The notes: a model not told the origin generated them from the letters alone. A stretch of 64,000 nt of DNA from a virus (IMGVR_UViG_3300029194_000183:9970-73969); one strand, 5' to 3'. Shown: positions 6,278 to 61,123, numbered from the stretch's first letter. Translations and numbers: made by a program.

Positions 6278-7487
6278 TTTTCTCAACTTCAATATGGTCT
6301 GGATATACCAGTACCTTCGATACTTCCTTTTCAAACCGTTCCTGATCCATGTTCAGCCACTCAAGTTCTCGCAGGATTGCATCGATAAGTTCTTCTTCCT
6401 TAATAAAGCGGTTGCCGCATCGCTCATTGCCTTTTCCTTTTTGCCGGTTTCGGCAGTTCCACGCTTTATAGGTGCTTTGCGTCTTGAAACCGCCAGCAGC
6501 TTTCAAAGTCCGGCGCAAAAAGGGAGTACCACATTCTCCACAGAATACTTTGCCGTAGAGGAAGTGATGCTCCCTGTTCGTTTTATGAATACCGACCTTT
6601 GCCAGTTCTTTTCGTTTTTCCAGAATTTCCTGTGCCTTATCCCATGTCTCCCGATCTATGATTGCTTCATGGTCATCCCACAGATAATTGGATTCCACCT
6701 TCTGATTCGGATTGGGCTTCTTGGTCAGGTAGTCCAACGGAGCTTTCTTCTGCAACCGCTTGTCACCCACATAGGTTTCATTTGAAACCATGTACCGGAG
6801 AGTTTCTACTCCAAACCCCTTTTTACTGTGCAACGATTGAGCCCCCAGCTCTTCCAAACCTTTAGCGATTTGCCTATAGCTCTCGCCTTCGATGAATCTG
6901 CGGAATACTTCCTTTACAATCCAAGCGTCCTTGTTGGGAACCAGCTCGCCATCCACACAGTCGTAGCCGAGAATACGATTATTGCCGAGATTGTACTCAC
7001 CTCGTGCAAATCGGCTTGCATAAGCAGCCTTTTCATTTTCACTGATAGAATGACTTTCATCCTGTGCCACTGCTGCCAAGATGGATAGGACGAAATCACA
7101 GGTTGGATCATCTGTGCGGATATTTTGTTCCTCAAAAATGATTGTAACCCCCAGCGTTCTAAACCATTTGGCATACTGCTGGCAATCCACCATGTTCCGA
7201 GAAAACCGGGAAATACTCTTGCAAATGATAATATCCAGCTTCTTGGCTTCGGCGGCCGCCGCCATTTCCTGAAAGCCCGGTCGATTTTTCACTCGTGTAG
7301 CAGAATGCCGGTCAGCATATACCTTAACCAGTTCCCAGTCGGGATGACTTTGGATCAGCTCCTCGTAATACTTCTGCTGAGTTTCAAAGCTTTCATCCTG
7401 CTCGTTGCGAAAAGTGCTGACACGGCAATACGCGGCCACACGTTTCTTTGCCACTGGGATTTTTGGCATTACCTTTTTAATAATCAT
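6273..7487 (-). CDS. Serine recombinase (third gene of the tandem triplet)
   Basis: KKRVAAYCRVSTFRNEQDESFETQ...KSISRFSRN...DESHSIS plus a C-terminal Cys-rich Zn-ribbon (CGECGTPF...CRNRQ). Confidence 0.9.
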   Translation of the reverse strand: MIIKKVMPKIPVAKKRVAAYCRVSTFRNEQDESFETQQKYYEELIQSHPDWELVKVYADRHSATRVKNRPGFQEMAAAAEAKKLDIIICKSISRFSRNMVDCQQYAKWFRTLGVTIIFEEQNIRTDDPTCDFVLSILAAVAQDESHSISENEKAAYASRFARGEYNLGNNRILGYDCVDGELVPNKDAWIVKEVFRRFIEGESYRQIAKGLEELGAQSLHSKKGFGVETLRYMVSNETYVGDKRLQKKAPLDYLTKKPNPNQKVESNYLWDDHEAIIDRETWDKAQEILEKRKELAKVGIHKTNREHHFLYGKVFCGECGTPFLRRTLKAAGGFKTQSTYKAWNCRNRQKGKGNERCGNRFIKEEELIDAILRELEWLNMDQERFEKEVSKVLVYPDHIEVEKN

Positions 7488-46066: not shown

Positions 46067-46608
46067 TCAGTCGATTTCTTTGAGGAACTCCACCGCTGCC
46101 GCCTTTCCGATGCTGGAAGACAGCCCACTGTGCAATGTATCTGTCGGGAATCCCCACTCCGTATACCCGTCTGCCAATAAGTCGAAGTACTCATGGCTGG
46201 GGCAGCCGAGCTGCCTTTCTTCGTGTAAGATGTATGCCATACAGGTTTTCAGCTTCTTCATCCGATGCCCATCCAGATTCCAGACGGGAAGCTGGAACTG
46301 CTTCTTGTAATAGTACCGAGGGCAGCCCTCATACCGATCCAGCAGCAGTTCATCAAACTCGGAAAGCAGCCATACCACAGCTGGGACGCTTTCATTGGCA
46401 TCCTGCTCGATGGTGGCGTAGCACCCAGTCTTGCTTTTCTTGAACAGGAGTCGGTATCCGTAGATTTCGGTAACACCGACCGGCACCGCATAGGGGCATC
46501 TGTGCCCCATCCGCTCCATGTCAAGGTTGCTGCCGTAGGCAAGATAGTACCGGGACGGCTTTCTGCTGATCCCACCCTTGTCGAACCGGAAGTGATCAAT
46601 CACCGACC
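46067..46608 (-). CDS. GGCT/AIG2-like cyclotransferase family protein (copy 2); start approximate (probable GTG)
   Basis: SRYYLAYGSNLDMERMGHRCPYAVPVG...PAVVWLLSEFDELLLDRYEGCPRYYY. The upstream part of the ORF overlaps the small gene 46596–46826. Confidence 0.6.
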
Positions 46609-46826
46609 TCACCGCCTTCCGCTGCGGAAAAGTCCACGCCGTCAAAGTCCTCAGCTTCCAGAACGATCTGTCCGTTGTGCCACCAGTCGCTGACCGCCTG
46701 GACGGCCTCATCCATCGTGGGTTCCTTGATCTCAGATTCGTTGACCTCGACCACCCGTTTGAGGGTCTCGGTGATGACCACCCGGAACGTTCTGCCGGGT
46801 GCGGTTTCTCTGGTTTCATTTTTCAT
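46596..46826 (-). CDS. Hypothetical small acidic protein (76 aa)
   Basis: Strong RBS GAAGGAGG precedes ATG MKNETRETAP. Sits between the amidoligase and GGCT copy 2. Confidence 0.4.
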   Translation of the reverse strand: MKNETRETAPGRTFRVVITETLKRVVEVNESEIKEPTMDEAVQAVSDWWHNGQIVLEAEDFDGVDFSAAEGGEVGD

Positions 46827-46896: not shown

Positions 46897-47832
46897 TTAT
46901 GCGTTGCGCCAGCTTGCGTTGCCCTCCATATTCCGCAGAAGGATCTCCCGTGCTGTTTTGAACTCGTCCCCGATGAAACCCAGCCGAAGCATCCAGCACC
47001 GCATTGCGTATTTCTCGTTGTCAGTCTGCTGGGGCTTGGGGCTTGCGGTCTTCACCATCTTGGCAAGCTGGCTCATTGCGAGGCAAAGCTGGATGTAGGC
47101 TTTCAGCTCACCGGCGTGCAGTCCGTTCTGCTTGCCGTCGCTGGGGTCGGCAAACTGGAAAAGCCGGAATTCAATCGTGCCCTTGGTGAAGGTGGCGTGG
47201 AGGTTCAGCATATGGTATCGGCTTTCATTGTAATGTGCCGTTCTGCCGTAGTCTGCGTGGTTGCCGGCGTACCAGATGTCGGCAAGCTCAGTCATGGTCG
47301 TCGGCTTTCTCTTGTTCAGCTGGTCAAGGAATCGGGGGTCGACCACTCGGCAGTACTGTCCGGTTCTGCCTGCATCGATGCGAATCGCTCTGCCGATCTG
47401 TTCTTCGTGGGCGGCCATGATGTTGACCAGATTCCGCAGGGTCTTGGGGGTGTGGCTACCCTTGCCGATGTGGATGTGAACGCCGCATCCCCGGCTGGGG
47501 CTGGACTTTGCGCCAGCCTTGCGGAGCAGTCGGATGATTGCCTGCAAGGTCTCGATGTCCTCGTAGGTAAGGATGGGGGTCACCATCTCGCACTTTTCAG
47601 CTTCCGGTCCGTGGATGCTGATGTCTCGCTGGAATTTCCAAACCCTGCCCTGCTGGTCCTTGCAAGCCCAGCTCATGTACCCGTACTCGCCGGCTGCGTA
47701 CCATGCGGTCGTTCCGAAGAACTCGGCAACCTTTCTGGCGGCTTTCTCGCGGGTGATGTTGTTCATCTCAACCTCGACCCCGATGGTCTGCATCTTCATG
47801 GCTTCGATCTGCTCTCTGGTCTTATCGTTCAT
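46897..47832 (-). CDS. Amidoligase_2-family protein (glutamine-synthetase/GCS2-like fold), putative
   Basis: IGVEVEMNN...CEMVTPIL...GCGVHIHIG show the E-x-E and H-x-H metal/ATP-site-like motifs. RBS AAAGGAG precedes ATG MNDKTREQ. Preceded by cassette R8. Confidence 0.6.
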   Translation of the reverse strand: MNDKTREQIEAMKMQTIGVEVEMNNITREKAARKVAEFFGTTAWYAAGEYGYMSWACKDQQGRVWKFQRDISIHGPEAEKCEMVTPILTYEDIETLQAIIRLLRKAGAKSSPSRGCGVHIHIGKGSHTPKTLRNLVNIMAAHEEQIGRAIRIDAGRTGQYCRVVDPRFLDQLNKRKPTTMTELADIWYAGNHADYGRTAHYNESRYHMLNLHATFTKGTIEFRLFQFADPSDGKQNGLHAGELKAYIQLCLAMSQLAKMVKTASPKPQQTDNEKYAMRCWMLRLGFIGDEFKTAREILLRNMEGNASWRNA

Positions 47833-47849
47833 GGTGTTTATCTCCTTTT

Positions 47850-47945
47850 GTCTTGTTCTGTTCCCCTTGCGGTATGTGCATATTACCGTCATGTGGGGAG
47901 GATAGCAAGGCCATAAAGGGTCAAATAATCACCGATCATTCAAGG
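47850..47945 (-). promoter_or_regulatory. Promoter/leader cassette copy R8 (TTGCTA-N17-TAATAT)
   Basis: Minus strand reads tgtacacgatctttgccttgaatgatcggtgattatttgaccctttatggccTTGCTAtcctccccacatgacggTAATATgcacataccgcaagggg. Confidence 0.5.
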
Positions 47946-48063: not shown

Positions 48064-49215
48064 TTACGCTCCCGCCTCCTGTGCCTGGGGTGCGCCGTCT
48101 GCCCCACAGTCGGGCTGTGTGGGGGCTTCCGCTGCCGCTTCGGCCGTTTCCTCGGCGGCAGAAACGCCGCCGTGTGCCGCCTGTTTTGCGGCTTTCAGGG
48201 CATCTCGCTTAGCCTTTTCCTTAACCCGGAACTTTTCGGCATCTTCCTCGGTGCGGAATGCCGCATGACCGGAAAGGTTCTGCATCAGGAGTTTGCGGAT
48301 GGTCTTGTGTTCATCTCCGTTCAGACCCAGTCGGATCAGCCAGATGCGGAGTGCGTACTTCTCATTGGCATCGTTGATGGTCTTTGCCTGGATTCGCTTC
48401 TGAGCGATTGCCATCCGGTTCATGGCGGCGCAGAGTTCCGTGTAGGCACGGACCTTCTCCTGCGTCAGCGGACCGGCAAAAGCCAGGCTGATCTTCTCCG
48501 CCGTGATCTGGATGCCGGTCATGCCGGTGGTACCGGCACCCAGGCGGTATTCTTCCAGCTCATCCAGCATTTCGCTCACCGTATGGGGCGTTGCCTGTTC
48601 CAGTGCGTCCAGAAGTCCCTGCGACACCGTGAAGTTCGTACCCATCGCTTTGTTCAGCAGAGGGCCTCGGCTGTACATGAGGTTCAGGAAATTCCGCAGG
48701 CTCTGGGCGGTATGCCCGGACATCGGCAGGCTGATGGTCAGCTCATCCACATCCTGCAAGGTCGGCTGTTCGGTCGGAGCAGGTGCCTCATCCGCATCGG
48801 TGTCATTCACAGTGTCCATCGGCTTGTTCTCGTCCACCGGTTCCTGAGCTTCCGGGGATTCCACGGCAGTTGTGTCCGGTTCCTCGGTGGGCTGGATATC
48901 CTCGGTGATGTCCACGGTCTCATCCGACCCTTCGCACTCCGATTCCGAGCTCTCCTCGCAGGCGGTTTCGGTTTCCGAGGTCTCCGGGGTCTCCGCGCCT
49001 TCCTCACGGATAATGCCCTCGTCCAGCAGCGTCCGGATGATCTCCGGCGCAGCGTTATCTTCGATCACAAGCGTTCCCTCCTTTTCTACTGTGTAACTGC
49101 CGACGATGTAAGCGCAGCGCGGCATGAAAGTGTACCGGGAATGAAGCCCGGTCAACTCCATCAGGCGGCTTACCAGAACCTTGCGGTCATCAATATTCAG
49201 TGCGTACTTTTTCAT
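48064..49215 (-). CDS. Amidoligase-paralog protein with acidic N-terminal region (possibly non-catalytic)
   Basis: The C-terminal 200 aa (SGHTAQSLRNFLNLMYS...NEKYALRIWLIRLGLNGDEHKTIRKLLMQNLSGHAAFR) align with the C-terminal half of 46897–47832 (GSHTPKTLRNLVNIMAA...NEKYAMRCWMLRLGFIGDEFKTAREILLRNMEGNASWR). It lacks the N-terminal E-x-E region. Preceded by cassette R9. Confidence 0.45.
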   Translation of the reverse strand: MKKYALNIDDRKVLVSRLMELTGLHSRYTFMPRCAYIVGSYTVEKEGTLVIEDNAAPEIIRTLLDEGIIREEGAETPETSETETACEESSESECEGSDETVDITEDIQPTEEPDTTAVESPEAQEPVDENKPMDTVNDTDADEAPAPTEQPTLQDVDELTISLPMSGHTAQSLRNFLNLMYSRGPLLNKAMGTNFTVSQGLLDALEQATPHTVSEMLDELEEYRLGAGTTGMTGIQITAEKISLAFAGPLTQEKVRAYTELCAAMNRMAIAQKRIQAKTINDANEKYALRIWLIRLGLNGDEHKTIRKLLMQNLSGHAAFRTEEDAEKFRVKEKAKRDALKAAKQAAHGGVSAAEETAEAAAEAPTQPDCGADGAPQAQEAGA

Positions 49216-49234
49216 GGCTTTGTGCCCCTTTCTT

Positions 49235-49335
49235 TGTTTTCGGTAGCACATATATCGCTCTGAATCGATGAAATAGCAAGGCCATTTCTCGACATTCTTC
49301 ATATTCGACCTTTTACACGATCCGTACAAAACACG
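49235..49335 (-). promoter_or_regulatory. Promoter/leader cassette copy R9 (TTGCTA-N19-TATATG; divergent)
   Basis: Minus strand reads ggatcgtgtaaaaggtcgaatatgaagaatgtcgagaaatggccTTGCTAtttcatcgattcagagcgaTATATGtgctaccg. Confidence 0.4.
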
Positions 49336-49419
49336 ACTGTGCAAGATCATCCGATATGTACGCCCACGGTATCACGGGGTAGCCTTTACCTCGTAATACA
49401 GTGGGCCATTTTATTGGTT

Positions 49420-50238
49420 TCAGCCGACTCTTGCTTCCAGCGCAGCGATGCGCTGCTCAAACTCAGCCGTCTTATTTTCCAGAGCTTCCAGACGCTCGGC
49501 CTCGGTCAGGGGCTTTTTCTCCTCGTCAAGGATCAGGTAGCGTTCCATGACGTAACCGGGAATGGTCTCATAAGTCACAGCGCACCAGCCATCTTCCTGC
49601 CCGATCACGTCCAGCCGGGCACCGTTGGGAATCCAGGCAAGACGGTCAGCGGTTCTTTCGGGAGCCTGCCGCAGACTCAATCTTCCGCCCGTAACGGTTG
49701 CCTTGCAATGAACTGCCAGCATATTGACCTTTTCCATCTCTACCTTCTCCTCTCGATTACTTTTATAGTTGATGCCTTTCAGCCGGCCGCCGAACTTCCA
49801 CCTGCCCAGAACTGAGTCACGGTGGATGCTGTTTCCTTCCACGCTGGTGGAGCAATGGGTGATCTCCAGCGGATGCACTCTTGTGATCACGCCCACATGG
49901 TAGTAGTCCCGCAGGTCTCCGGTACAGTTTACACCTCCCGACTTGTACCGGTCCGGCAAACTGTAGCTGCTGTCGCCGGGGTTCCGGGCTTTGAATACGA
50001 TCTCACCCACGAACAAGTGTGCGGTTTTGAGTTTCACAAAGTCCGCCATCTGTTTCCGGGCTGCGTAGTTACTGCCGTGGTAGCCGTTCCAGCTTCCACC
50101 GGCTCTGCGGACTGCGCCGATGATAAGACCAATGCAGTCACAGGTACCATCCGTACCGCTGCCGCCGATGCGATAGTCTGGTTTCGTAGCACAGATGGTC
50201 TCGAGCTGCTCAAGAAAAGCAGTCAGGGTGATGCTCAC
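49420..50238 (-). CDS. NlpC/P60-like papain-fold cysteine peptidase with SH3b-like domain and C-terminal coiled coil
   Basis: GTDGTCDCIGLIIGAV carries the Cys nucleophile context, and ...YYHVGVITRVHPLEITHCS the His. The SH3b-like segment reads GGRLSLRQAPERTADRLAWIPNGARLDVIGQEDGWCAVTY. GTG start overlaps the MTase stop (GTGA). Confidence 0.5.
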   Translation of the reverse strand: MSITLTAFLEQLETICATKPDYRIGGSGTDGTCDCIGLIIGAVRRAGGSWNGYHGSNYAARKQMADFVKLKTAHLFVGEIVFKARNPGDSSYSLPDRYKSGGVNCTGDLRDYYHVGVITRVHPLEITHCSTSVEGNSIHRDSVLGRWKFGGRLKGINYKSNREEKVEMEKVNMLAVHCKATVTGGRLSLRQAPERTADRLAWIPNGARLDVIGQEDGWCAVTYETIPGYVMERYLILDEEKKPLTEAERLEALENKTAEFEQRIAALEARVG

Positions 50239-52583
50239 TCCGATTCACTCCCATTCTCAGGCGATCCGGCCACCCAGACGATGCCGGACAGTACAAAAAA
50301 GACACACGGCAGTGCGACACCATTGCCCCAGAGCTTATACTCTGCGGCATCCGAATACGGGTCTGCCAGCCATTTTCGGATCTGCTTTTCCGTCTTCGGC
50401 TTCTTGGCGTGGGTCACCAGTCTGCGGTGCGTTTCAAACACATCCTGCCAGAAAGCGATTTCATCCTCGGTGGGATTCTCAGTTTCGATGTCATGGCACC
50501 ACCAGTCCGGGAAACCCTGCAGCCGAGCGCACTCAGTCGGGGTCAGACGGCGAACCGTATAGGACACGGGGATCGGCTGTGCGTCCGGGTTATCGATGAC
50601 CAGCCGGTCATTAAAAGCGTCCTGCCCGTTGAAGCCGCTGGGATGCGCCCCGGTCGCCACCGTTCCCGACACGCCATCGTTCAGGTGCGGCACCGGCGCT
50701 ATGGTGGTGGGGTCTTTAAAGTCCCGGGCCATAAGGGTGGGAGATACATTCTCCTCGACCCTCATGAAGGAGCCGGTGGTCATGGCGTAAACATCTTCCG
50801 GTGCGCAGACTGCGTGACGGTCAGTGGCATCCAGCGTAAAGCAGACATCTTCGTTGATGCCGTCACCTTGCGGACCATTCTCGTCTTTGCGGCCGATCAT
50901 GTTGCCCTGCAGCACGAAGGTCTGCATCTGGTCGCTTCGGGTCGCCATGAGCGCACCGGACTTTCCATGCAGGTCGATCAGCTCATTGCGCTGATTCACA
51001 TGGAATGCCGTCACGTCATCCGGCTGCGCCACAAAGGTCTGCTGTTTCATTCCCGGTTGTGCAGACAGCGAACCCGCCGTCTCGCCCAGATTCCGGACTT
51101 CATCCCGCTGGTTCTGGGTAAAGGCTACTGCCGGAGCCCCGCCATGGGTGCAGGCCAGAGGCGGTGCCACCTGTTCGTCTACCGTGCAGTTCGACTTGCC
51201 TCCACCCTGATCCACGCAGACAACAGGTTCACAGATACACAGCCCACCCTGGTTACAGGTCGGGTCACCGCCGCTGCGATCAAGCGTCCGGGAAGTTTCC
51301 GCTTCATAGAATCCGCTGTGGGGGTTATCCGACATCATGGAATGGCTGGCCTTGGAGCAGACACCGTAGCACTTAGGCACGAACACGGTCTGGTCGTTGT
51401 TGCAGCCGAGGGTAGCAGATTTTTCCTCCTGCCAGATAGCACCTTTGCCGCCACCCTCACATCCAGAACGAATTTTCAGTGTGACTGCAGGTGAGTTTTC
51501 CACCTCTTTCCCGCTGTTTTCCACGCCATCCAGAACCAGCGGAACATTGCCGCCGCCCGTACCGCATCTACTGGTCAGAGTCTGTACCTTGCCATCCTTG
51601 GAAATTTTCACTCGACTGTCAGTCGGATGATTTTCCAAAGCGATGGCGGCAGGCACGACTCCGGCCCGGAGAGTGGGAGAACGTTCTTTCTCATATCCGA
51701 TGCTCCTCGCATTGGCGGAGTGTTCGGTGCAAAAACCTGCGGATTCCAAAACGCAAGGCGGGTGATGTGCCTCTGCACGGAGGGTGGAGGTCACCTCCTC
51801 GGTCACATCCATCCTCTCCCCGCCCTGATCGTTCAGGCAGATTCTTCCGCAGCAGCCTGCCGTTCCAGTGCCGCCTTCAGCACCGGAGGCAGCTCTTTGC
51901 CACGTACGGAAGCTCTCCGCAGAATACCCAGACACGCCTTCGGACTCAAATAATACTTTTGGAGCACCGTGGTCTGCAAAATCTGCGACAAGGTAGATGC
52001 GTTTTCTCCTTTGGGGTACGCCCCACCATTGAGCGTCAAGAACTCGATATGCGACGCTCCATCCGTCTCCCAGATAGTAATCTGCATCGGGCCAGCCTTT
52101 TTTGTCAGGCGCAGGCACCTCGGTGGACGGTTCCTTAACACCGATGACGGCCTCGAGGACTGCTTTGAAGTCCTGCCCTTTGTTGGACGAGAAGGCGCCT
52201 GGGACATTCTCCCATACGATAAATCTTGGTTTTGCTCCATTGGTCTTACACCTCATTTCCTTCACGATTCGAATCGCTTCATAGAACAGGCTGGACCGTG
52301 AACCATCCAGACCGTCTCTTTTACCGGCAATGGACATATCCTGACAAGGACTGCCAAAGGTGATGATATCCACCGGCGGCAAGTCTGAGCCGTTGATGGC
52401 GGACACATCCCCGTAGTGCTTCACCTCCGGCAGACGCTTGGTCGTGACCCGGATGGCGAAGGGTTCCACTTCGCTGCTCCACAGCGGCGTGATACAACCT
52501 GTCAGTAAACCGCCCAAAGGGAAACCCCCGGAGCCATCAAAGAGGCTGCCGAGGGTCAGTTGGATATTCGATTCGGTGCTCAT
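50235..52583 (-). CDS. DNA (cytosine-5)-methyltransferase with an expanded multi-module target-recognition region
   Basis: Motifs I FDGSGG, IV GSPCQDMSIAG, VI ENVPG, VIII QRRKRIY, IX RRLTPTECARLQGFPDWW, X GNGVALP. About 470 aa between motifs VIII and IX hold at least 6 segments of the form (S/T)(P)TL....G.GGG..P(L/V). Confidence 0.85.
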   Translation of the reverse strand: MSTESNIQLTLGSLFDGSGGFPLGGLLTGCITPLWSSEVEPFAIRVTTKRLPEVKHYGDVSAINGSDLPPVDIITFGSPCQDMSIAGKRDGLDGSRSSLFYEAIRIVKEMRCKTNGAKPRFIVWENVPGAFSSNKGQDFKAVLEAVIGVKEPSTEVPAPDKKGWPDADYYLGDGWSVAYRVLDAQWWGVPQRRKRIYLVADFADHGAPKVLFESEGVSGYSAESFRTWQRAASGAEGGTGTAGCCGRICLNDQGGERMDVTEEVTSTLRAEAHHPPCVLESAGFCTEHSANARSIGYEKERSPTLRAGVVPAAIALENHPTDSRVKISKDGKVQTLTSRCGTGGGNVPLVLDGVENSGKEVENSPAVTLKIRSGCEGGGKGAIWQEEKSATLGCNNDQTVFVPKCYGVCSKASHSMMSDNPHSGFYEAETSRTLDRSGGDPTCNQGGLCICEPVVCVDQGGGKSNCTVDEQVAPPLACTHGGAPAVAFTQNQRDEVRNLGETAGSLSAQPGMKQQTFVAQPDDVTAFHVNQRNELIDLHGKSGALMATRSDQMQTFVLQGNMIGRKDENGPQGDGINEDVCFTLDATDRHAVCAPEDVYAMTTGSFMRVEENVSPTLMARDFKDPTTIAPVPHLNDGVSGTVATGAHPSGFNGQDAFNDRLVIDNPDAQPIPVSYTVRRLTPTECARLQGFPDWWCHDIETENPTEDEIAFWQDVFETHRRLVTHAKKPKTEKQIRKWLADPYSDAAEYKLWGNGVALPCVFFVLSGIVWVAGSPENGSESE

Positions 52584-53350
52584 ACAGCCTCCTCTCCGAG
52601 CATCTGCTCTTTTGCTTTCAGGTAGAAGTCCCTGGACACTTCAAATCCGTAGCTGTCACGTCCCAGTTCTCTGGCCGCCCGGAGCGTTGCACCGCTGCCG
52701 GCGCAAGGATCAATGACCACATCTCCGGGATCGGTAAAGATCTCGATCAGGCGTTTCAGCACGGACACCGGTTTCTGAGACGGATGGATCTTTGGATAGT
52801 CCTTGCCATCCCGTTTCCAGTCAAACCAGTTGAAGATCATGTGGGACTTGCCGTCTTCACCGACGTTGTTGAACTTCGGGAGCTTGCCCCGGTAGAGGAC
52901 CAGCGCATACTCCGTTGCACCCACGATCTTCATGTTGGCTTTCAAGACCTGCGGGCTGTAGTTCTTACAGAAGGTCAGCGGGATATAGTTCTTGAAGCCG
53001 TACTTCTCAGCTTCCGTGATGACCTTGGGGATCTGCTGGAACGCACAGAACACGATCATGCACGGTGCGCCCTTTTCCCCTTTCATGGGTTCTTTCTTCA
53101 GCAGCCGGTTACAGAAATGGAAATATTCTGCGATATTGAAAGTGAAGTCGGTGTTGAATGCCGCTTTCCGGGCCTTATCGCTCTCTCCATTCCGGTTATC
53201 TCCGTCTACATACCAATCCGGGCGGCTGGCGTAGAAGTCCGACCCGATGTTATACGGGATGTCGGCGATCACCAGCTGTGCCTTGGGGATGTTGTAGGAC
53301 TTGAAGTTCTGGAAGTTGTCATGGAACAGGACACATCTGGGTTCAGTCAT
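52580..53350 (-). CDS. DNA methyltransferase (N6-adenine/N4-cytosine class, DPPY-type)
   Basis: QLVIADIPYNIG motif IV variant; SAM-binding motif VIDPCAGSGATL near the C-terminus. RBS AGGAGG precedes ATG MTEPRCV. Confidence 0.75.
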   Translation of the reverse strand: MTEPRCVLFHDNFQNFKSYNIPKAQLVIADIPYNIGSDFYASRPDWYVDGDNRNGESDKARKAAFNTDFTFNIAEYFHFCNRLLKKEPMKGEKGAPCMIVFCAFQQIPKVITEAEKYGFKNYIPLTFCKNYSPQVLKANMKIVGATEYALVLYRGKLPKFNNVGEDGKSHMIFNWFDWKRDGKDYPKIHPSQKPVSVLKRLIEIFTDPGDVVIDPCAGSGATLRAARELGRDSYGFEVSRDFYLKAKEQMLGEEAV

Positions 53351-54611
53351 CTGCGCCCTCCTGTTCCGGCTGGAAGGACGCCACCTCATCGAACTTCAGC
53401 TTTTGACCGTCACGGAGGACATACACATCCTCGTAGCGACCTTCGCTGTGTTCGATATAGCGCTTGACGATAACATCCACGAACTTGGGGTCAAGCTCAA
53501 TGCCCCGGCACACCCGGTCAGTCTCCTCACAGGCGATCAAGGTCGAGCCGCTGCCGAGGAAGGGGTCAAGGACGATGCCGTTGGTCATGGTGGAGTTGCG
53601 GATGGGATAGCTCATCAGGCCGATGGGCTTCATAGTCGGGTGGTCCTTGTTTGCTTTGGGACGGTCGTACTCCCAGATGGTGGTCTGCTTACGGTCAGAG
53701 TACCACTGGTGCTTGCCCTTCAGTTTCCATCCATAGAGGCAGGGTTCATGCTGCCACTGATAGGGACTGCGACCCAGCACCAGAGCATTCTTTTTCCAGA
53801 TACAGCACCCGGACAGATAGAATCCCGCATCCTTGAATGCCTTTCGGAAATTCAGACCTTCCGTGTCGGCGTGGAAAATGTAGATGGAACCATCATCTGC
53901 CAGATGACCGTGCATCTGCTTGAACGCCGCCAGCAGGAACTCGTAGAATTCCGAGTCGCCCATGTTGTCGTTCAGGATCTTGCCAGCCGTTTCTTCCACG
54001 TCCACATTGTACGGGGGATCGGAAAGCACAAGGTTGGCCTTCACGCCGTCCATCAGGGTGTCGTAGCATTCGGCCTTGGTGGAATCGCCGCACAGAACTC
54101 TGTGCTTGCCCAGCATCCAGAGGTCGCCCGCTTTGGAAAAGCACGGCTGTTTCAGCTCGGACTCCACATCGAAGTCATCTTCTTTGACCTCTTTGTTGTG
54201 GACCTTGTTGAACAGCGTCTCGATCTCAGGCGGGTCAAAACCCGTCTTGCCCAGGTCGAAGTTGGATTCCTCGATGTCTTTGAGCAGGTCGGCCAGCAGG
54301 GTGTCATCCCATGCGCCCGTGATTTTGTTGAGCGCAATGTTCAGCGCCTTTTCTCTGGTCTTGTCGATGTCCACCACCGCACACGGAACTTCCGTGTAGC
54401 CCAGATCCATGGCAACGGTCAAACGCTGATGGCCGCCAATAATTGTCATGTCGGCATTGACCACCAGCGGGTCGGCAAACCCGAACTCCGTAATGGAGTT
54501 CTTAATCTTCTCGTACTCCTTATCCCCCGGCTTCAGTTTTTTCCGGGGATTGTATGCGGCCGGCTTGAGTACGGACACCGGCAGCATTTTCAGTTCAGCG
54601 GTTGCTTTCAT
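53343..54611 (-). CDS. ParB-like nuclease domain fused to an N6/N4 DNA methyltransferase
   Basis: The N-terminus LPVSVLKPAAYNPRKK...GGHQRLTVAMDLGYTEVPCAVVD is ParB/Srx-like. MTase motif IV is VLSDPPYNVD and motif I is LDPFLGSGSTLIACE. RBS GAAGGAGG. Confidence 0.8.
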   Translation of the reverse strand: MKATAELKMLPVSVLKPAAYNPRKKLKPGDKEYEKIKNSITEFGFADPLVVNADMTIIGGHQRLTVAMDLGYTEVPCAVVDIDKTREKALNIALNKITGAWDDTLLADLLKDIEESNFDLGKTGFDPPEIETLFNKVHNKEVKEDDFDVESELKQPCFSKAGDLWMLGKHRVLCGDSTKAECYDTLMDGVKANLVLSDPPYNVDVEETAGKILNDNMGDSEFYEFLLAAFKQMHGHLADDGSIYIFHADTEGLNFRKAFKDAGFYLSGCCIWKKNALVLGRSPYQWQHEPCLYGWKLKGKHQWYSDRKQTTIWEYDRPKANKDHPTMKPIGLMSYPIRNSTMTNGIVLDPFLGSGSTLIACEETDRVCRGIELDPKFVDVIVKRYIEHSEGRYEDVYVLRDGQKLKFDEVASFQPEQEGADD

Positions 54612-54622
54612 GTAGTCCTCCT

Positions 54623-54856
54623 TCACACGCACATGACCTCAGAGAACGGCACGAAAAAGGAGCCGAACTGAAAGCCCGACTCCAACTCATCGCTATCCCC
54701 GCCCATCTCCGACTGCGGCTTTTCCGTAATCGGATACCACTCCGGGTTCTCCCCGTTCATGGAGGCAAGGACCCTGTCCTCTGCATGATCGATCTCATGT
54801 ACGCAGATGCCCCCGGTGTTGAACATCGGGAACACGCCGATTGTCTTATTCTCCAT
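54623..54856 (-). CDS. Hypothetical small protein (77 aa)
   Basis: RBS AAAGGAG 9 nt before ATG MENKTIGVF. Confidence 0.35.
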   Translation of the reverse strand: MENKTIGVFPMFNTGGICVHEIDHAEDRVLASMNGENPEWYPITEKPQSEMGGDSDELESGFQFGSFFVPFSEVMCV

Positions 54857-55148
54857 CGCTATGTTCTCCTTTCGCCCTGCCCTTGTTGGCACAGGCACGG
54901 CTGCAATATTTTCTCGGAAGCCCGTACTGGTGACGGTAGGAAAACTCCCTGCCGCACACCGGGCAGACCTTTGACCGCACGGTCTTCCAGTTCTGCGGTC
55001 GCGGATGGGTGTTGTTCCACTTGGAGCGGCATTCCGGGGAGCAAAACTTTCGTGGTCTGCCCCGGTGGTTCGGAACGATGGCAGTTCCGCACTGCGGACA
55101 GAAGGCAAACGCCATGTCCTTGACCATTTCCGCTGTGTAATCCTGCAT
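54846..55148 (-). CDS. Zinc-ribbon protein (two CxxC-x15-CxxC units)
   Basis: CPQCG...CSPEC and CPVCG...CSRAC. Confidence 0.4.
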   Translation of the reverse strand: MQDYTAEMVKDMAFAFCPQCGTAIVPNHRGRPRKFCSPECRSKWNNTHPRPQNWKTVRSKVCPVCGREFSYRHQYGLPRKYCSRACANKGRAKGEHSDGE

Positions 55149-55547
55149 CTGTCCTCACCTGCCCCTCATTTTTCGCCGTTTCTGTGGCGTTTTCAGTGGA
55201 AAATCTCAAAAAGCATACGAAAAGAGGCAAAGTGAAAATCGGACCTGCCCCGCCGGGTTACATTGTTTTTGCGGCGTCCGATTTTCGACTGCCTCTGTTC
55301 CTCCCGGAACAAGCTAAAGCGTATGAAAAGTTCTGTATTGCAAGGTTTTTCACACGCTTTGGTTCGTTTCGGGGGAAAACAAAAGGCACCGGAGCGTTCA
55401 CCCCGATGCCCTCATCTTCACCTTGTTCATTTTGCGCCGTTAATTTCGGGACCCCCGGCCTATGAATTTTGCGTTTTTTCACACGAAAGGGGCCACCGGT
55501 CTCCGTGTGACTTCACTGTAGAGAAGTGACCCCGGCCCCGGCGGGGG

Positions 55548-55907
55548 TCAGTATTGGTACACCGGGTTGATGTCTTTGGTCAGAGTCTTGCGGTCATGGC
55601 ATTGCTTACAAAGCGGCTGCCAGTTAGCATCGTCCCAGAAAAGTCTGGGATCGCCACGGTGCGGTGTGATGTGGTCCACCACGGTGGCTTTCGTGTATTT
55701 TCCCTGCCTCATGCACTCGGCGCAGAGCGGATGGGCTTGGAGATACTGCTTGCTTATTTTTTGCCACTGTCGTGTGTAGCCCCGCTTTCCGGCAGAGCGC
55801 GTCACTTCCGGGTGCAGCGGCAGGTGCTTCTCACAGTAGAGGATGCCGGGTTCAACCAGCTCCGGGCAGCCGGAGTGTCGGCATGGCACCTTGGGTCTGC
55901 GGGGCAC
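55548..55907 (-). CDS. HNH endonuclease
   Basis: CRHSGCPELV...YCEKHL...HPLCAECMRQGKYTKATVVDHITPHRGDPRLFWDDANWQPLCKQCHDRKT shows the HNH/Zn-finger motif with catalytic His and Asn. Confidence 0.75.
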   Translation of the reverse strand: MPRRPKVPCRHSGCPELVEPGILYCEKHLPLHPEVTRSAGKRGYTRQWQKISKQYLQAHPLCAECMRQGKYTKATVVDHITPHRGDPRLFWDDANWQPLCKQCHDRKTLTKDINPVYQY

Positions 55908-55910
55908 GGG

Positions 55911-56978
55911 TCATTCCTCCCACGGCAGACCGGGCTTGCCGAAGTGACCGTAGGCACTGACCTTGTTGTAGTCAACGTCCAGCAGACCCAGACGCTTGAT
56001 GATGCCCTGCGGAGTCAGGTCGTAGCTGTCACGGACGTAGGCTTCGATGAACTCCGGTGCTTCATGCTCCGTACCGAAGCACTCCACCGACACGCCCACC
56101 GGCTGTACCACGCCGATGGCGTAGGCCAACTGGACTTCACACTTGTCAGCGTAGCCGGCCTGTACGATGTCCTTGGCGATCTTCCGCGCCATATATGCTG
56201 CGGAGCGATCCACCTTGGTGGGGTCCTTGCCGGACAGTGCGCCACCGCCCATTCGACCGATGCCGCCGTAAGTATCACACGCCAGCTTCCGACCGGTCAC
56301 ACCGCAGTCGGCATAACTGCCGCCCAGCACGAACCGGCCGGTGGGATTGACGAGCTTCTGGAAGTCACCGTCCAGTCCGTACTCACAGGCGGCAAGCACC
56401 ATCATGGATTCGATAATGTGGCGGAAGTCGCTGACCTCCACGTCCGGGCTGTGCTGCACGGAGCAGAGGAACGTAGTGATTCGGCCGGTGTCGTAGTCGT
56501 AGCTGACCTGCGCCTTGGCATCTGCCCGGAACATCTTGGACGGATGGTTCTTCAGCAGTTGCAGGAACTTGGTGGCGACCATGTAGGGGATCGGCATCTG
56601 TTCGGCGGTCTCGTTGGTGGCGTAGCCGTACATGATGCCCTGGTCACCGGCACCGCCCTTATCCACGCCCAGTGCAATATCCGGCGACTGCATATCGACC
56701 AGGATGCCGATGCGGAGCAGTTCCCGGAAATCAAAGCCCATCTTGTCTGCACCGATACGGGTGATGACCTCATGGACGATCTGCTGGTAGTTGGGCTGGT
56801 AATCGGTGGTGACCTCGCCAGCGATAAAGAGCTGGCTGCGTTTCAGCAGACACTCGGTTGCCACACGGGCGTTCTTGTCGTGCTGGAGGATGTCGGTCAC
56901 AATGGCATCTGCGATCTGGTCGCAGATCTTGTCCGGGTGGCCGTTGCTGACCTGCTCACAGGTGATAATCTTGCTCAT
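55911..56978 (-). CDS. metK: S-adenosylmethionine synthetase (methionine adenosyltransferase) homolog, phage-encoded
   Basis: GHPDKICDQIADA, GAGDQGIMYGYATNE, GGGALSGKDPTKVDRSAAYMARKIAKDIV and DTYGG are MetK signature motifs. 355 aa, slightly shorter than bacterial MetK. Confidence 0.9.
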   Translation of the reverse strand: MSKIITCEQVSNGHPDKICDQIADAIVTDILQHDKNARVATECLLKRSQLFIAGEVTTDYQPNYQQIVHEVITRIGADKMGFDFRELLRIGILVDMQSPDIALGVDKGGAGDQGIMYGYATNETAEQMPIPYMVATKFLQLLKNHPSKMFRADAKAQVSYDYDTGRITTFLCSVQHSPDVEVSDFRHIIESMMVLAACEYGLDGDFQKLVNPTGRFVLGGSYADCGVTGRKLACDTYGGIGRMGGGALSGKDPTKVDRSAAYMARKIAKDIVQAGYADKCEVQLAYAIGVVQPVGVSVECFGTEHEAPEFIEAYVRDSYDLTPQGIIKRLGLLDVDYNKVSAYGHFGKPGLPWEE

Positions 56979-57059
56979 AGCTGTTCCTCGCTTTCATGTA
57001 TCACAAAGCAGGCCGCCTTTGCCGTTGCCCACAAACGTAGGCTCCCACAAAAGCTGCCT

Positions 57060-57360
57060 GCTCAGTATCGTGTGGTTTTCATCTTTTTGTTGCTGGCCTG
57101 TTGCCGGTTCTTCCCTCACAAAATGAGGGGTCAGATTCTTGAAAAGCATTGTTATTACGATGTTTTCAAGGCTTTCATTCTACTCTTTTTATCTTTTGTT
57201 GCTAATGTTGCTGGTAAAAAGTAAATCGCATATAAAAGAAAAGAATAATAAAAAAATAGGGTTTTGAGTCGCAACATCAGCAACACGTCCAAAAGCGCCG
57301 ATATATCAGCGTTTTTCTGTTGCCGGTCTGTTGCCGATGTTGCTGGTCGAGGCTCAGAAG
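57060..57360. repeat. Iteron array (at least 9 copies of TGTTGCYRR, spaced 9–11 bp, one inverted pair) around an AT-rich tract; candidate replication origin
   Basis: gttgctggcctgttgccgg; gttgctaatgttgctgg; the AT-rich stretch aaaagtaaatcgcatataaaagaaaagaataataaaaaaatag; the inverted pair cgcaacatcagcaacacg; gttgccggtctgttgccgatgttgctgg. Non-coding, directly downstream of the primase gene. Confidence 0.5.
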
Positions 57361-57450
57361 TGGTCTTGCAGTTCTGTAAAACCCAACTTTTGTGGCCATG
57401 GTGAGTCGCTTTCACGACTGAGCCGTGCCGCCCTTGTGTTCACTCTGCGG

Positions 57451-59859
57451 TCACTCCGGCACTACATTGAAGTCGCCTTTTGTGGTTTCGGAGAGGCAGA
57501 ATTCCACGCCCAAAACGATCTGTGTTGTACTGCCGACACCATCCGCCGGACGCTTTTTCTGCACTGTGTACCTCTTGTCGATCTCGGCATTCAGCACCTT
57601 GGCCGAGTCTGCCCTGTACCCGTTTTCAGCACACCATTCCTTGTAGCGTGTATAAACGGCAGCACGGCGAAGCTCACTATCTGCTTTCGGCTGGAGGCAT
57701 TCACTGAAGAACTGCCCCATCTTATCCGAGAACATCTGGTAGTCCATGGTGGCCTGTACGACAGAGTCTGGCATCTCCAACCCCTGACTGCGGAACATCT
57801 TATAGCCTTCGAGCATCCAGTTCAGGATGCCGGACATATTTTCCGGTTCTGCAAAGAAGCCCTTCAATCCCTTATCCTGCTCTTTTTCATCAAAGTGGCG
57901 GTCAAAGGGAATGATTTTGATTCGACCGGACTCGAACAAAGTCAGATCCGTGATGTTCGGACGATGGTTCGTGTTGATGAAGATCTTGAAGTTCGGGCGG
58001 AACTCAAAACTGTTCTCGTGCAGATACCGAGCGGTAATCGTATCGTTGCCGGTCAGTCGCTTGGTCAGAGCTGCATCCAACGTGATCTTCTTCTCAGGCT
58101 CAGAAATGTTGACGAACCGGGAGCCGGCAAGACGAGCGATCTCCTCAGACGGTCCACCACTCTGGGCATTGAACTTTGCCTGCAGCATGGTGGGGTCGGC
58201 GTTTTTGCCGTACTCGCCCATGATCCGCAGGATGCTTTCCATGGTGGTGCCCTTGCCGTTTCGGGAAGTAGGACCATAGAGGATGAACAGACATTCCATC
58301 CTCGTATCACCGGTCAAGGCGTATCCGATGGCTTTTTGCAGATAGTCGGCTCTCGCCTTATCTCCTTGCATGATTTCTGTGATGAAAGTCCGCCAGCGAG
58401 GACAGTCTGCTTTCGGGTCATAGATGACCGGGGACACCTTTGTGAGGTAGTCGTCCGGGCGGTGTTCCCGGAACTCCATCGTCCGCAGATCCAGCGTTCC
58501 GTTCTGGCAGTTGAACAGGTAGATGTCCCGGTCGTAGTGTTTCATGGACAGTGGGAACACAGACTTTGCATCCTTCAGCATGGTTTCCCGATGCTTTCGG
58601 AGCTGGAGCTTCCGCACCCGGTCGATGAATCGCTTTCGAGCATCCTCCTCTGTGATCGTCAGGGCAAACACATACAGCTTGTCCGCCAGCAACTTCGCCA
58701 GTTCCGCCACCTTGAGGTTTTCCGTGTCCGGCTGCCAGACCTTCCCGTCGTAAACATACCAGATGCCACGCTCACTGTTATACCGGGCGATGGGCTTGAA
58801 GAAATCGGCAAACATATTGCCCATACCGATCTCATCCCTGCCGTATCTGGGATTCGTGTGCGGAGCCATCTCATCCAGTGACAGGGTGAGCTTGGTGATG
58901 TCCGGCTGGAACTCCGGGGATTTAGACTCCGGGTCAAGGTTTGTGAACTCCTCGTCCACGATGTCCTGTGCGTTGACCGGAACGTACACCGCTGCACAGG
59001 TGTTGACGGTGTTCCGAATGGAGATTGCGCCGTAAGTCGTACCGGCCTGCCGGCGATCCCACTTGTCACGCATCAGGCCGGAGGTTCGGAAGATGCGGTC
59101 CATCTGTTCTTCATCGCAGCCGCACCAGAACGCGAGGATGGACAGAAGTGCCATGTCCGCATCCGACTGGCTGTCATAGAGTTCTTCCCAGTCACCGGCA
59201 TAGAGCTTCTTGAACTTGTCACCGTTGCTGGCTTCATCAGCATGGGCAATGACCGCGTCATCGTCCAAATACGAGTGATGCCGGAGCTGTGTGTTCTGCA
59301 CCTGCTTGTTGCGCTTCATCAGCGAGTCCAGCAAGGTGGTCATAGCCGTCTCATCGTTGGGGATCTCCCCTGTGCGGTAAACATCTCCCGTCACGGTGAC
59401 GAAGCGGTTTGTCGCACCGGGCATATACACTTCCAGCCCTTTGCTGCGGTTGTTGATGTAATAGACTGTCTTGTCGTAGACAAAATCTTCCGGCACGCAA
59501 AAAAAGCCTCGCAGTCCCTTACCGGACGGAGACTTCTCAACGTATGCCGTGGGGAAAATGGAAAGGACGGTCGCTGCTGTGTCGTTCAGCGTCCCGTCCT
59601 CTCTGAAACAGTGGTCGATATCAAAAGCGCCGATGCCGTTGCCGACCGCAATGCCGATGCCGTCATAACCGCCCATCGCATAAGCCATGAGGGTAGTCTT
59701 GAAATCGCCAAAGGTGCGCAAGTCGTTGATTCTGGCGCGGTCACCGTTGGCCGGATTGTACGGCATCTTGGTCTTCTGACCGCTTCGCTTTTCAAACTTC
59801 CAGACGCAGAACCGGCAGTCACTTTTCAGTCTCGCAGGGATATTCTTGATGTCTACCAC
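57451..59859 (-). CDS. Primase-helicase (prim-pol N-terminal domain + P4/D5-type SF3 helicase)
   Basis: The N-terminal bifunctional primase/polymerase-like region reads ...GIGIAVGNGIGAFDIDHC... The central primase C-terminal region is present. Walker A is ILYGPTSRNGKGT, and a D5_N-like region follows. 802 aa. GTG start with a GAAGGAGG RBS. Confidence 0.85.
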   Translation of the reverse strand: MVDIKNIPARLKSDCRFCVWKFEKRSGQKTKMPYNPANGDRARINDLRTFGDFKTTLMAYAMGGYDGIGIAVGNGIGAFDIDHCFREDGTLNDTAATVLSIFPTAYVEKSPSGKGLRGFFCVPEDFVYDKTVYYINNRSKGLEVYMPGATNRFVTVTGDVYRTGEIPNDETAMTTLLDSLMKRNKQVQNTQLRHHSYLDDDAVIAHADEASNGDKFKKLYAGDWEELYDSQSDADMALLSILAFWCGCDEEQMDRIFRTSGLMRDKWDRRQAGTTYGAISIRNTVNTCAAVYVPVNAQDIVDEEFTNLDPESKSPEFQPDITKLTLSLDEMAPHTNPRYGRDEIGMGNMFADFFKPIARYNSERGIWYVYDGKVWQPDTENLKVAELAKLLADKLYVFALTITEEDARKRFIDRVRKLQLRKHRETMLKDAKSVFPLSMKHYDRDIYLFNCQNGTLDLRTMEFREHRPDDYLTKVSPVIYDPKADCPRWRTFITEIMQGDKARADYLQKAIGYALTGDTRMECLFILYGPTSRNGKGTTMESILRIMGEYGKNADPTMLQAKFNAQSGGPSEEIARLAGSRFVNISEPEKKITLDAALTKRLTGNDTITARYLHENSFEFRPNFKIFINTNHRPNITDLTLFESGRIKIIPFDRHFDEKEQDKGLKGFFAEPENMSGILNWMLEGYKMFRSQGLEMPDSVVQATMDYQMFSDKMGQFFSECLQPKADSELRRAAVYTRYKEWCAENGYRADSAKVLNAEIDKRYTVQKKRPADGVGSTTQIVLGVEFCLSETTKGDFNVVPE

Positions 59860-59873
59860 GTTCTCGCCTCCTT

Positions 59874-60254
59874 CTAGGTAGTAGTGTCGGCAGTGCCCAT
59901 GTTAAAGAACACCGCAATGGCCTGCTCCACTTCCCGCTGCTTGGCGGTAGAGGTCAGGCTGCCCAGCTTGTTCAGCAGGGCGTTCTTTCCGATGGTCGTG
60001 ACCTGCTCTGCCAGTGCGACAGAGTTGCGCAGATACGCATGGTCATTGATCATCTGGCAGTCTGCCTCTGCGATCTGGATGTGCGTGGGCAGACCCAGCT
60101 TCTTCTGCACGGTGGTCAGCGGGATCACCGTGAGGGTGCTGGAAAAGCGGTTCGCCACATCGTTGCTAATGACCAGCACAGGGCGGCTGCCGCTTTGCAC
60201 GGAACTGCCGTAATGGTCGCCCAGCTCGGCAAACCAGATTTCAAACCGCTGCAC
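59874..60254 (-). CDS. MazF/PemK-fold protein (type II toxin-like endoribonuclease fold); start uncertain
   Basis: MVQRFEIWFAELGDHYGSSVQSGSRPVLVISNDVANRFSSTLTVIPLTT...PTHIQI...NSVALAEQVTTIGKNALLNKLGSL matches the MazF/PemK pattern (G-D-I-w-x-d, RP-vLViSND, P-T). No recognisable cognate antitoxin is found upstream. Confidence 0.55.
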   Translation of the reverse strand: MQRFEIWFAELGDHYGSSVQSGSRPVLVISNDVANRFSSTLTVIPLTTVQKKLGLPTHIQIAEADCQMINDHAYLRNSVALAEQVTTIGKNALLNKLGSLTSTAKQREVEQAIAVFFNMGTADTTT

Positions 60255-60569
60255 CATCTGCTGCGGTGTTTCCTGCTGCGGTATGTCCTGCCGCAACGCT
60301 TCCTTCTGGGCAGACTTTTCAGATCGGGCCGTGTGCTGCTTGCGGAGCAGCCGCCCTTTCTGGTTGATGTATTTATTCACATGAGGTCTTGAACGACCGT
60401 TCTTATTCTTGCGACCCAATGAAAACTCACCTCTTTTTCCCGGTCGATAGACCTTGGGTTGATGTAAAAGTAAAAAGCCGGACAGAGAAATCACAGCTTT
60501 GGCGGCGAAGCAATCGCCGCAACAAAAAAGCCGAAGCAAAGTCATTTCTGACCGCCTCGGCAATACGCT

Positions 60570-60610
60570 TCTCTATCCAGCTTTTCCAGTATAAATTATA
60601 CCAAATTGAG
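60570..60610 (-). promoter_or_regulatory. Extended -10 promoter (TGgTATAAT) with a weak -35 TTTACG, pointing at the mazF-like/primase operon
   Basis: Minus strand reads ctTTTACGgtacgccctcaatTTGgTATAATttatactgg. It is followed within about 120 nt by two hairpin+T-run structures (gccgaggc...gcttcggcTTTTTTg and tccggcTTTTTa). Confidence 0.35.
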
Positions 60611-60685
60611 GGCGTACCGTAAAGAAATGATTTTGTCAAGAAACCCTTGAAAATGTCAATAAACTACTGTAATGTGCGGTCTAGT

Positions 60686-61123
60686 TCAACTTTTTTCTTC
60701 AAGTTTTCGCAGCTCCAAAGCAAGCAGCTCCAAGCCCAACTTTTTGAAGTGTCGGGCACGATTTACTCCAAGTACATGATCTTGCAAATCACAGATTTCT
60801 TTGAGTGCTTTACCGTCCAAATAAAAGCCAACAACAGCCGCTCTTGCATTGGCATGTGGAATTGCCCATATCGCACGGATCAGCTTCTCCAGTGACTCCC
60901 ATTTCTGCTGACACTTCTTTTCCTTTTCTTCGAGCATGAATTGATACAGTTCTTGCTCGTTCTGGCTCACGGCTTTACCCAGACTTTCCTTGATGTCTGA
61001 CATTTCCTGCTCCATAGCCAGCAGTTCCTCTCGAATGTGGGGAATCGCCTTGCAACATTCAAGAGCGTGGTTCACCTCCGCCTCAGTTGGCGGATGATTT
61101 CCCAGAATACTCGGTCTTGCCAT
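60686..61123 (-). CDS. Putative phage transcriptional regulator (ArpU/RinA-like), weak call
   Basis: 145 aa; ...IREELLAMEQEMSDIKE... with a C-terminal HTH-like segment LKEICDLQDHVLGVNRARHFKKLGL. Its position just before the packaging module is typical of late activators. Confidence 0.3.
   Translation of the reverse strand: MARPSILGNHPPTEAEVNHALECCKAIPHIREELLAMEQEMSDIKESLGKAVSQNEQELYQFMLEEKEKKCQQKWESLEKLIRAIWAIPHANARAAVVGFYLDGKALKEICDLQDHVLGVNRARHFKKLGLELLALELRKLEEKS

Follow-up and report, generated by a model that had tools for sequence, protein, structure and literature searches.

Why should a bacteriophage carry its own S-adenosylmethionine (SAM) synthetase, and why should that gene stand beside DNA methylases? 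The question is raised by a 64,000-nucleotide stretch of viral DNA, IMGVR_UViG_3300029194_000183:9970-73969 (hereafter the window, meaning the whole stretch analysed), in which a complete metK homologue lies on the minus strand in a row with three methylase genes. The initial annotation of this region had proposed either that the phage boosts the SAM supply for methylation of its genome or that phage MetK joins host MetK in mixed oligomers and thereby manipulates SAM-dependent host defences. The best explanation of the locus, according to our analysis, is that metK belongs to a conserved self-methylation block of temperate Firmicutes phages, comprising Candidatus (Ca.) Heliusvirales and Streptococcus Javan-type prophages. 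We favour, with a probability of about 0.6, the reading in which an active SAM synthetase free of feedback control would feed the orphan methylases of the phage during lytic replication, so that progeny DNA would be protected in the next host.

This reading depends on the phage gene encoding a working enzyme. The predicted protein of 355 amino acids (aa) contains the three SAM-synthetase domains PF00438, PF02772 and PF02773 (E 3.6e-27, 1.1e-24 and 1.4e-55, respectively) over residues 4-354, and it scored 401.3 bits against the NCBIfam metK equivalog TIGR01034, for which the cut-off is 309.4. It also aligned end to end with the solved MetK of Escherichia coli (structure 7ll3; E 2e-95), with 47.6% identity over the full length. 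On the basis of this alignment, and using the classical E. coli numbering, we examined 15 positions that we take to be the catalytic and metal-, phosphate- and substrate-binding residues of the E. coli enzyme. All 15 are identical in the window protein (His14, Asp16, Lys17, Glu42, Glu55, Gln98, Asp118, Lys165, Phe230, Asp238, Arg244, Lys245, Lys265, Lys269 and Asp271), so the loss of catalytic residues that the initial annotation had named as evidence against its proposals was not found. Thirteen of these residues are invariant among 69 distinct relatives, and the remaining two differ in one distant sequence each. Pairwise comparison of metK with 64 relatives gave a median dN/dS of 0.067, and a value near 0.07 indicates that the gene is under strong purifying selection.

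The phage protein was said to be about 30 aa shorter than the bacterial enzymes, and this holds for E. coli MetK (384 aa); compared with the Firmicutes median of 395 aa it is shorter by about 40. In the alignment to the E. coli enzyme the missing residues fall in several places, with two deleted from a loop of the central domain, five just past the gating loop, and four, three and two further along, and with the last 14 residues absent; all of them lie outside the catalytic motifs. An AlphaFold2 monomer model was too poor to use (mean pLDDT 53, pTM 0.44) because the alignment behind it, 16 sequences that were all at least 76% identical, was too shallow. Taken together, the domains, the conserved residues and the selection on the gene suggest that it encodes a catalytically competent SAM synthetase.

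The gene sits in a block, from 50.2 to 59.9 kb, in which every real gene is on the minus strand according to open reading frame (ORF) calls on the window, and Pfam, PHROGs and NCBIfam were concordant on the gene assignments. Its features are as follows.

59859-57451, minus strand: D5/NrS-1-type primase-helicase, 802 aa (Pfam, PHROGs)
57450-56979: non-coding gap upstream of metK, 470 bp, holding on the minus strand GCAACA dyads, an AT-rich core and promoter-like hexamers
56978-55911, minus strand: metK, short-type phage SAM synthetase, 355 aa (Pfam, PHROGs, NCBIfam, match to the E. coli MetK structure)
55907-55548, minus strand: HNH endonuclease, 119 aa (Pfam, PHROGs)
55547-55149: gap with two hairpins, 400 bp
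55382-55413, minus strand: terminator-like hairpin with U-run, 14 pairs, 135 nt past the HNH stop
55303-55373, minus strand: imperfect hairpin, roughly 70 nt long and conserved, separating the terminator from the zinc-ribbon and methylase genes
55148-54846, minus strand: double zinc-ribbon protein, 100 aa (phrog_2308)
54856-54623, minus strand: small ORF, 77 aa (read from the sequence)
54632 (or ATG at 54611)-53343, minus strand: ParB_N::N6_N4 methylase fusion, 429 or 422 aa (Pfam, PHROGs, PADLOC)
53389-52580, minus strand: second beta-class N6_N4 methylase, 269 aa (Pfam, PHROGs)
52583-50235, minus strand: long orphan C5-cytosine methylase, 782 aa (Pfam, PADLOC)

The genes named earlier for 52580-56978 (metK, the HNH gene, the ParB-fused methylase and the second methylase) were all recovered on the minus strand, in or adjoining that range, and the C5 methylase adjoins it just outside, as had been described. 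Two genes within the range had been passed over, namely those for the 100-aa double zinc-ribbon protein and the 77-aa ORF.

The three methylases are of different kinds. The ParB-fused protein matched PF02195 and PF01555, together with phrog_498 (E 8e-188) and the PADLOC model MTase_II PDLC03229 (E 7e-173). In its translation the motif SDPPYN precedes LDPFLGSGST, which is the beta-class order. Its true start is likely the ATG at 54611, which follows an AGGAGG. By ORF and PHROG annotation the block encodes no nuclease other than the 119-aa HNH protein. Its sequence thus identifies the fusion as a predicted beta-class N6/N4 enzyme (PF01555) of the ParB_N-fused subgroup (phrog_498), without a cognate restriction gene. 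The 269-aa protein matched PF01555 (E 1e-24) and also phrog_67. It had been called a DPPY-type methylase, and the assignment to the beta-class N6_N4 enzymes was borne out, but its motif IV reads DIPY and not literally DPPY. The third enzyme matched PF00145 in three stretches and the PADLOC orphan methylase model PDLC03715 (E 6e-278), and about 500 aa separate its N-terminal from its C-terminal block of conserved motifs. Within this insert we counted about ten TL-type (S/T-x-T-L) motifs, six by regular expression and the others by eye. Multispecific C5 methylases of Bacillus phages (SPR, phi3T, rho11s) are orphan enzymes of about 440-500 aa whose motif blocks are split by a variable target-recognition region; the window enzyme is likewise an orphan with split motif blocks, but at 782 aa it is far longer. 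It may therefore be multispecific, with many target-recognition domains, although a BLASTP self-comparison of the insert detected no significant internal repeats, so that multispecificity stays a hint.

We then compared the gene order with that of other phages. In Javan55 and phi-SsuNJ5 (both of Streptococcus) and in Clostridium phage NatCom_42228 a primase/helicase gene is followed by metK, an HNH gene, a small gene, a ParB-methylase, an optional C5 methylase and the genes for the small and large terminase subunits (TerS and TerL). Between the window and the Streptococcus Javan and SsuNJ5 phages, TerL identity is 76%. By gene order and by this related TerL the window fits the replication-to-packaging block of the Ca. 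Heliusvirales and Javan-type phages, its membership in the Heliusvirales TerL phylogeny being putative. For synteny counts we used 65 short-type MetK loci (the shorter class of MetK proteins, defined below) with at least 5.5 kb of downstream sequence. An HNH gene within 2.5 kb and a ParB-methylase were present downstream of metK in 65 of 65, a zinc-ribbon gene in 61 and a C5 methylase in 60, while the 269-aa methylase was found in 42 and appears as a variable cassette; these loci are mostly close relatives (MetK at least 90% identical), so that the counts overstate the independent support. Better evidence of a functional link comes from two Heliusvirales phages that are only distantly related and whose MetK is of the long type (40-42% identity), as their metK directly abuts a ParB-methylase gene. 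MetK without an adjoining methylase was seen in FP_Brigit, a Faecalibacterium phage in which it lies among replication genes, and in the flanks shown for the Microcystis jumbo phage Mel-JY01.

The relatives of the protein also bear on where the gene came from. MetK matched phrog_1569 over profile positions 2-346 of 346 (E 5e-135). A translated search of 50,697 phage records detected MetK in 139, about 90 of which are Streptococcus prophages annotated with an 'S-adenosylmethionine synthetase' that is 54-58% identical to the window protein; these synthetases (Javan, phiD12, phi1207.3-type, 12/111phiA) are 345 aa long and belong to the same short-type clade. Six NatCom gut-phage records carry a full-length homologue of about 62% identity, and PV036444.1, the one of the six that was opened, is classified as Ca. 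Heliusvirales. In these six records (PV036444.1, PV036445.1, PV036427.1, PV036428.1, PV036430.1 and PV036448.1; for example locus L002, 7998-9047) the homologue is wrongly labelled 'peptidase'. By exact peptide words alone, MetK matched 399 contigs in IMG/VR, and the 90%-identity protein cluster containing the window MetK has 5,635 members.

The lengths of these proteins are bimodal, with those at least 52% identical to the window MetK measuring 345-363 aa and the rest having a median of 395 aa. The short-type clade was monophyletic in 50 of 50 neighbour-joining bootstraps. The long-type cellular MetKs in our genome sample were 43-49% identical to the window protein, 49% being the highest value and the Lachnospiraceae one reaching 45%. 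These comparisons place the window MetK in an old, phage-borne short-type lineage (phrog_1569). A recent capture of the host's own metK was considered and rejected, since no long-type cellular MetK exceeded 49% and the short-type clade is monophyletic.

The short-type clade is not exclusively viral, as a copy was found in a cellular context in Oribacterium parvum. This MetK of O. parvum ACB1 (NZ_KE148312.1; locus L091, 2787-4056) has 352 aa and is 59% identical to that of the window. Its gene has purely cellular neighbours, with TrkH and TrkA upstream and glutamate-synthase-like, tpiA and pgk genes downstream, and a SAM-I riboswitch (73.5 bits) lies directly before it. In the neighbour-joining tree the O. 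parvum protein nests inside the phage clade. Two histories are possible, a replacement of the host gene by the phage gene or a cellular source of the phage lineage. If the short-type enzyme is the sole copy in O. parvum, then it can sustain a cell, which would hint at phage-to-host replacement. In addition, 11 metagenomic proteins of 476 aa (cluster P0006) combine an HNH domain (PF01844) with the three domains of a MetK that is 94% identical to the window protein; these are either MetK-HNH fusions or the product of reading through the 3-nt gap between the two genes.

Next, we asked how the phage gene is controlled. Among 20 metK loci of cellular Firmicutes, 17 were preceded closely by a SAM-I riboswitch, including loci of Lachnospiraceae, Faecalibacterium, Ruminococcus and Acutalibacteraceae. 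Over the whole window no riboswitch or leader was detected at the Rfam gathering threshold, upstream of metK or elsewhere, and permissive thresholds gave matches at chance level only. Eleven of 12 short-type loci also have no SAM-I riboswitch. Without it, the phage metK would escape feedback by SAM. Cellular Firmicutes MetKs share with the phage protein the family, the three domains and the catalytic residues, but they have about 395 aa and at most 49% identity to it. What we add to earlier work is this observation that the riboswitch common in cellular Firmicutes metK genes is absent from the phage gene.

The flanks of metK and the HNH gene carry further signals. Two sigma-70-like sites, which are consensus matches only, lie at 57274-57245 and 57205-57177. 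Within 49000-60800 no terminator-like site is better than the hairpin at 55382-55413, whose stem persists in relatives, almost entirely by way of G-U wobble changes. These sites suggest that metK and the HNH gene could form a separate transcription unit with promoter-like sites and a terminator of its own. The promoter-like sites fall among GCAACA repeats: 9 of the 34 GCAACA hexamers in the window lie within 57088-57343 (256 bp), between the primase/helicase stop and the metK start, where they form four dyads with 9-11 nt spacing, one of them inverted, around an AT-rich segment at 57215-57262. This cluster resembles an operator array or a replication origin of the iteron type. The conserved hairpin of about 70 nt beyond the terminator has a fold z-score of -6.3 and is conserved in 17 relatives, with four pairs changed on both sides and still paired. 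It matched no Rfam family above threshold, giving weak miRNA-like matches on both strands only, and it might act as a leader, a processing site or an inverted repeat bound by a protein.

How much SAM such methylation would take can be roughly estimated. The window contains 499 CCGG, 479 GCNGC and 253 GATC sites, so with a few specificities each genome would consume thousands of methyl groups. Over a whole burst this demand may be of the order of the SAM pool of a bacterial cell, and SAM could become limiting. The window is also poor in palindromes. Six-base palindromes have a median observed/expected ratio of 0.49, with GGATCC (0 against 10 expected), GTGCAC (0 against 11.8) and GACGTC (0 against 5.9) missing altogether, and the four-base palindromes CTAG, CGCG, ACGT and GGCC are low. 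The phage thus seems, from the sequence of the window, to combine site avoidance with methylation.

In the reading that we favour, the phage would express metK during lytic growth, apparently as the metK-HNH unit. Since a SAM-I riboswitch, present at most metK genes of cellular Firmicutes, is absent from this unit, SAM synthesis would continue whatever the SAM level. The extra SAM would supply the ParB-fused N6/N4, the plain beta-class N6/N4 and the long C5 methylases, and the replicated genomes would be methylated before packaging and so be protected from restriction in the next host. Between the two proposals of the initial annotation, that of an enlarged SAM supply is the better supported, through the intact residues, the purifying selection and the synteny with the ParB-methylase, but it is not new. 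Several points weigh against it. The literature searched contains no experiment that connects a MetK from a phage with SAM levels or with the methylation of phage DNA, and no paper comparing SAM or phage methylation in the presence and absence of a phage metK. Nor must metK and methylases go together, as about 40% of Heliusvirales have no metK though 67% carry a C5 methylase (10.1101/2023.08.29.555303). Host restriction and BREX that depend on SAM would likewise profit from a larger supply. Promoter and terminator were called by consensus matching only, and most of the 65 loci counted above are close kin. Finally, the sole functional study, on prophage 12/111phiA of group B Streptococcus (S. 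agalactiae), reported host phenotypes in the lysogen, with incomplete complementation.

That study is the chief support for a different idea, in which metK would be expressed in the lysogen and would alter the host through polyamines, autoinducer-2 or the cell envelope, to the benefit of the host and so of the prophage, with DNA methylation being secondary. The 12/111phiA MetK belongs to the same short-type clade and derives, as the authors state, from a Javan-like prophage family; deleting either the relB-metK segment or metK removed flocculation, long chains, glycocalyx and biofilm, and plasmid-borne metK partly restored these traits (PMC8223999). However, most complemented strains failed to recover and secondary mutations were found (PMC8223999). 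Moreover, metK lies between replication and packaging genes and not by the integrase or lysis modules, where morons usually sit, and it is always linked to methylases. We consider this lysogenic role unlikely. A similarly doubtful alternative is that the gene serves the general needs of the phage and not methylation specifically, sustaining SAM if host metK expression collapses through host shut-off or chromosome degradation, or if SAM is depleted by a competitor's SAM lyase or a host response. The promoter-like sites, the terminator and the absent riboswitch would all suit such a replacement supply, as would the MetK found without a methylase in the shown flanks of Mel-JY01 and that among the replication genes of FP_Brigit. 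Near metK, on the other hand, no host shut-off or nuclease functions were identified, and the tight linkage in this lineage is to methylases, the obvious consumers of SAM.

Enzymes of the MetK family assemble obligatorily into dimers or tetramers, their active sites lying where the two subunits of a dimer meet, and the second proposal of the initial annotation started from this oligomeric state: phage MetK would join host MetK, alter SAM synthesis and so modulate BREX or type I/III restriction-modification. The catalytic motifs that line the dimer interface are indeed conserved in the phage protein, and host MetK is a proven phage target, as the SAM lyase of T3 demonstrates. The same residues argue the other way, however, as their complete retention under strong purifying selection fits an enzyme and not a poison subunit. 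Identity to the sampled long-type cellular MetKs is only 43-49%, the short-type protein is apparently an ordinary riboswitch-controlled cellular gene product in O. parvum, and the phage MetK matched no PADLOC (defence) or anti-defence family. Raised SAM would moreover feed and not starve SAM-dependent defences, which is the opposite of what the T3 lyase does. We found nothing that supports mixed oligomers; the protein looks like a normal, self-sufficient enzyme and not a decoy, and the proposal is very improbable. We would give just as little credit to a broader version, in which the short-type MetK would be a streamlined, riboswitch-free enzyme that co-assembles with host long-type MetK and resets SAM homeostasis and SAM-dependent immunity, in a lineage that may even have displaced the resident metK in some bacteria, O. 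parvum being a candidate.

The endonuclease gene beside metK probably has another role than methylation. Packaging-associated HNH proteins of the HK97 gp74 type have about 100-120 aa and are encoded beside the terminase genes of cos phages. The window protein matched PF01844 (E 2e-9) and phrog_144 (E 4.5e-37), and it also matched the TerS-fused family phrog_4581. Its gene, a constant partner of metK throughout this lineage, begins 3 nt past the metK stop and lies about 15 kb from TerS in the window and 3-4 kb in the Streptococcus relatives. Its size, phrog_144 and the match to the TerS-fused family make a role in packaging, as the lineage's small HNH protein of that type, more probable than one in methylation. 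We also considered whether it could be the nuclease of a restriction-modification pair and rejected this, as it is a 119-aa protein of the phrog_144 type that travels with metK and not with any one methylase. The zinc-ribbon protein matched phrog_2308 (E 1e-17) and, more weakly, phrog_1271 and phrog_15471, families whose HNH proteins carry this domain. The 77-aa ORF, overlapping the zinc-ribbon stop at one end and the ParB-methylase start at the other, matched no PHROG or PADLOC family.

The remainder of the window supports the label of phage that the element had been given. TerS, TerL, a portal protein, an HK97-type major head protein, a tape measure protein of 1957 aa, an endolysin and serine recombinases are all encoded, which marks a temperate tailed phage, and we identify the element as the siphovirus-like prophage of a temperate gut phage. 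A MetK locus of 93% identity is part of a prophage in a 1.09-Mb scaffold of Clostridium fessum, which points to a host among the Lachnospiraceae. At its low-coordinate, lower-GC end the element carries a tandem array of three genes for large serine recombinases (phrog_95, integrase; minus strand, 2129-4090, 6273-7487 and 7477-8988), an unusually high number for one prophage. Between the methylases and TerS there are amidoligase-like genes (phrog_2443) at 48064-49350 and 46897-47892 and a gamma-glutamyl cyclotransferase gene at 46067-46819, all on the minus strand. The same pairing occurs in NatCom_42228, and the genes would form a module for the modification of a peptide or metabolite. A MazF-like growth inhibitor with a long N-terminal extension (59874-60563, minus strand; phrog_1936, E 1.5e-20) is encoded just upstream of the primase/helicase, and NatCom_42228 also has a MazF-like gene adjoining metK.

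Gene blocks of this kind are common across a widespread phage lineage, and databases and papers already contain the gene, the methylase linkage and the hypothesis of a role against restriction. In Ca. Heliusvirales 58.9% of genomes were reported to encode an S-adenosylmethionine synthetase and 67% a C5 methylase, and both were proposed to help against restriction-modification (bioRxiv 10.1101/2023.08.29.555303). In S. agalactiae prophage 12/111phiA an 'endonuclease-metK' pair was noted, deleted and complemented, with patchy complementation (PMC8223999). A survey of gut phages found that metK makes up 8.6% of all auxiliary genes called, second to dcm (PMC12180181), so the description of the gene as a noteworthy auxiliary function was too generous. 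The window nevertheless differs from its known relatives. The Streptococcus prophages share its gene order, but they infect another host (that of the window being a C. fessum-like member of the Lachnospiraceae), have fewer methylases, and have no counterpart to the roughly 10 kb of extra genes, including the amidoligase and gamma-glutamyl cyclotransferase genes, between its methylases and TerS. The NatCom Heliusvirales carry their MetK homologue in the same block with an HNH gene, a methylase and a gamma-glutamyl cyclotransferase, and relative to the auxiliary-gene set of Heliusvirales the window stands out by its three methylases. The SAM lyase (SAMase) of T3 is similar in being a phage protein that acts on the SAM economy of the host in the context of restriction and BREX. 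The lyase knocks out SAM-dependent defence by destroying SAM and inhibiting host MetK, but the window phage encodes a synthase; the two work in opposite directions, differ in fold and have no sequence relationship.

If the coupling between metK and the methylases is real, this phage lineage invests in the methyl donor as well as in the methylases, the opposite of the destruction of SAM by T3. Such coupling would account for the high frequency of metK among the 'metabolic' genes of gut phages, and it is a reminder that genes of this kind may serve the modification of phage DNA rather than the metabolism of the host.

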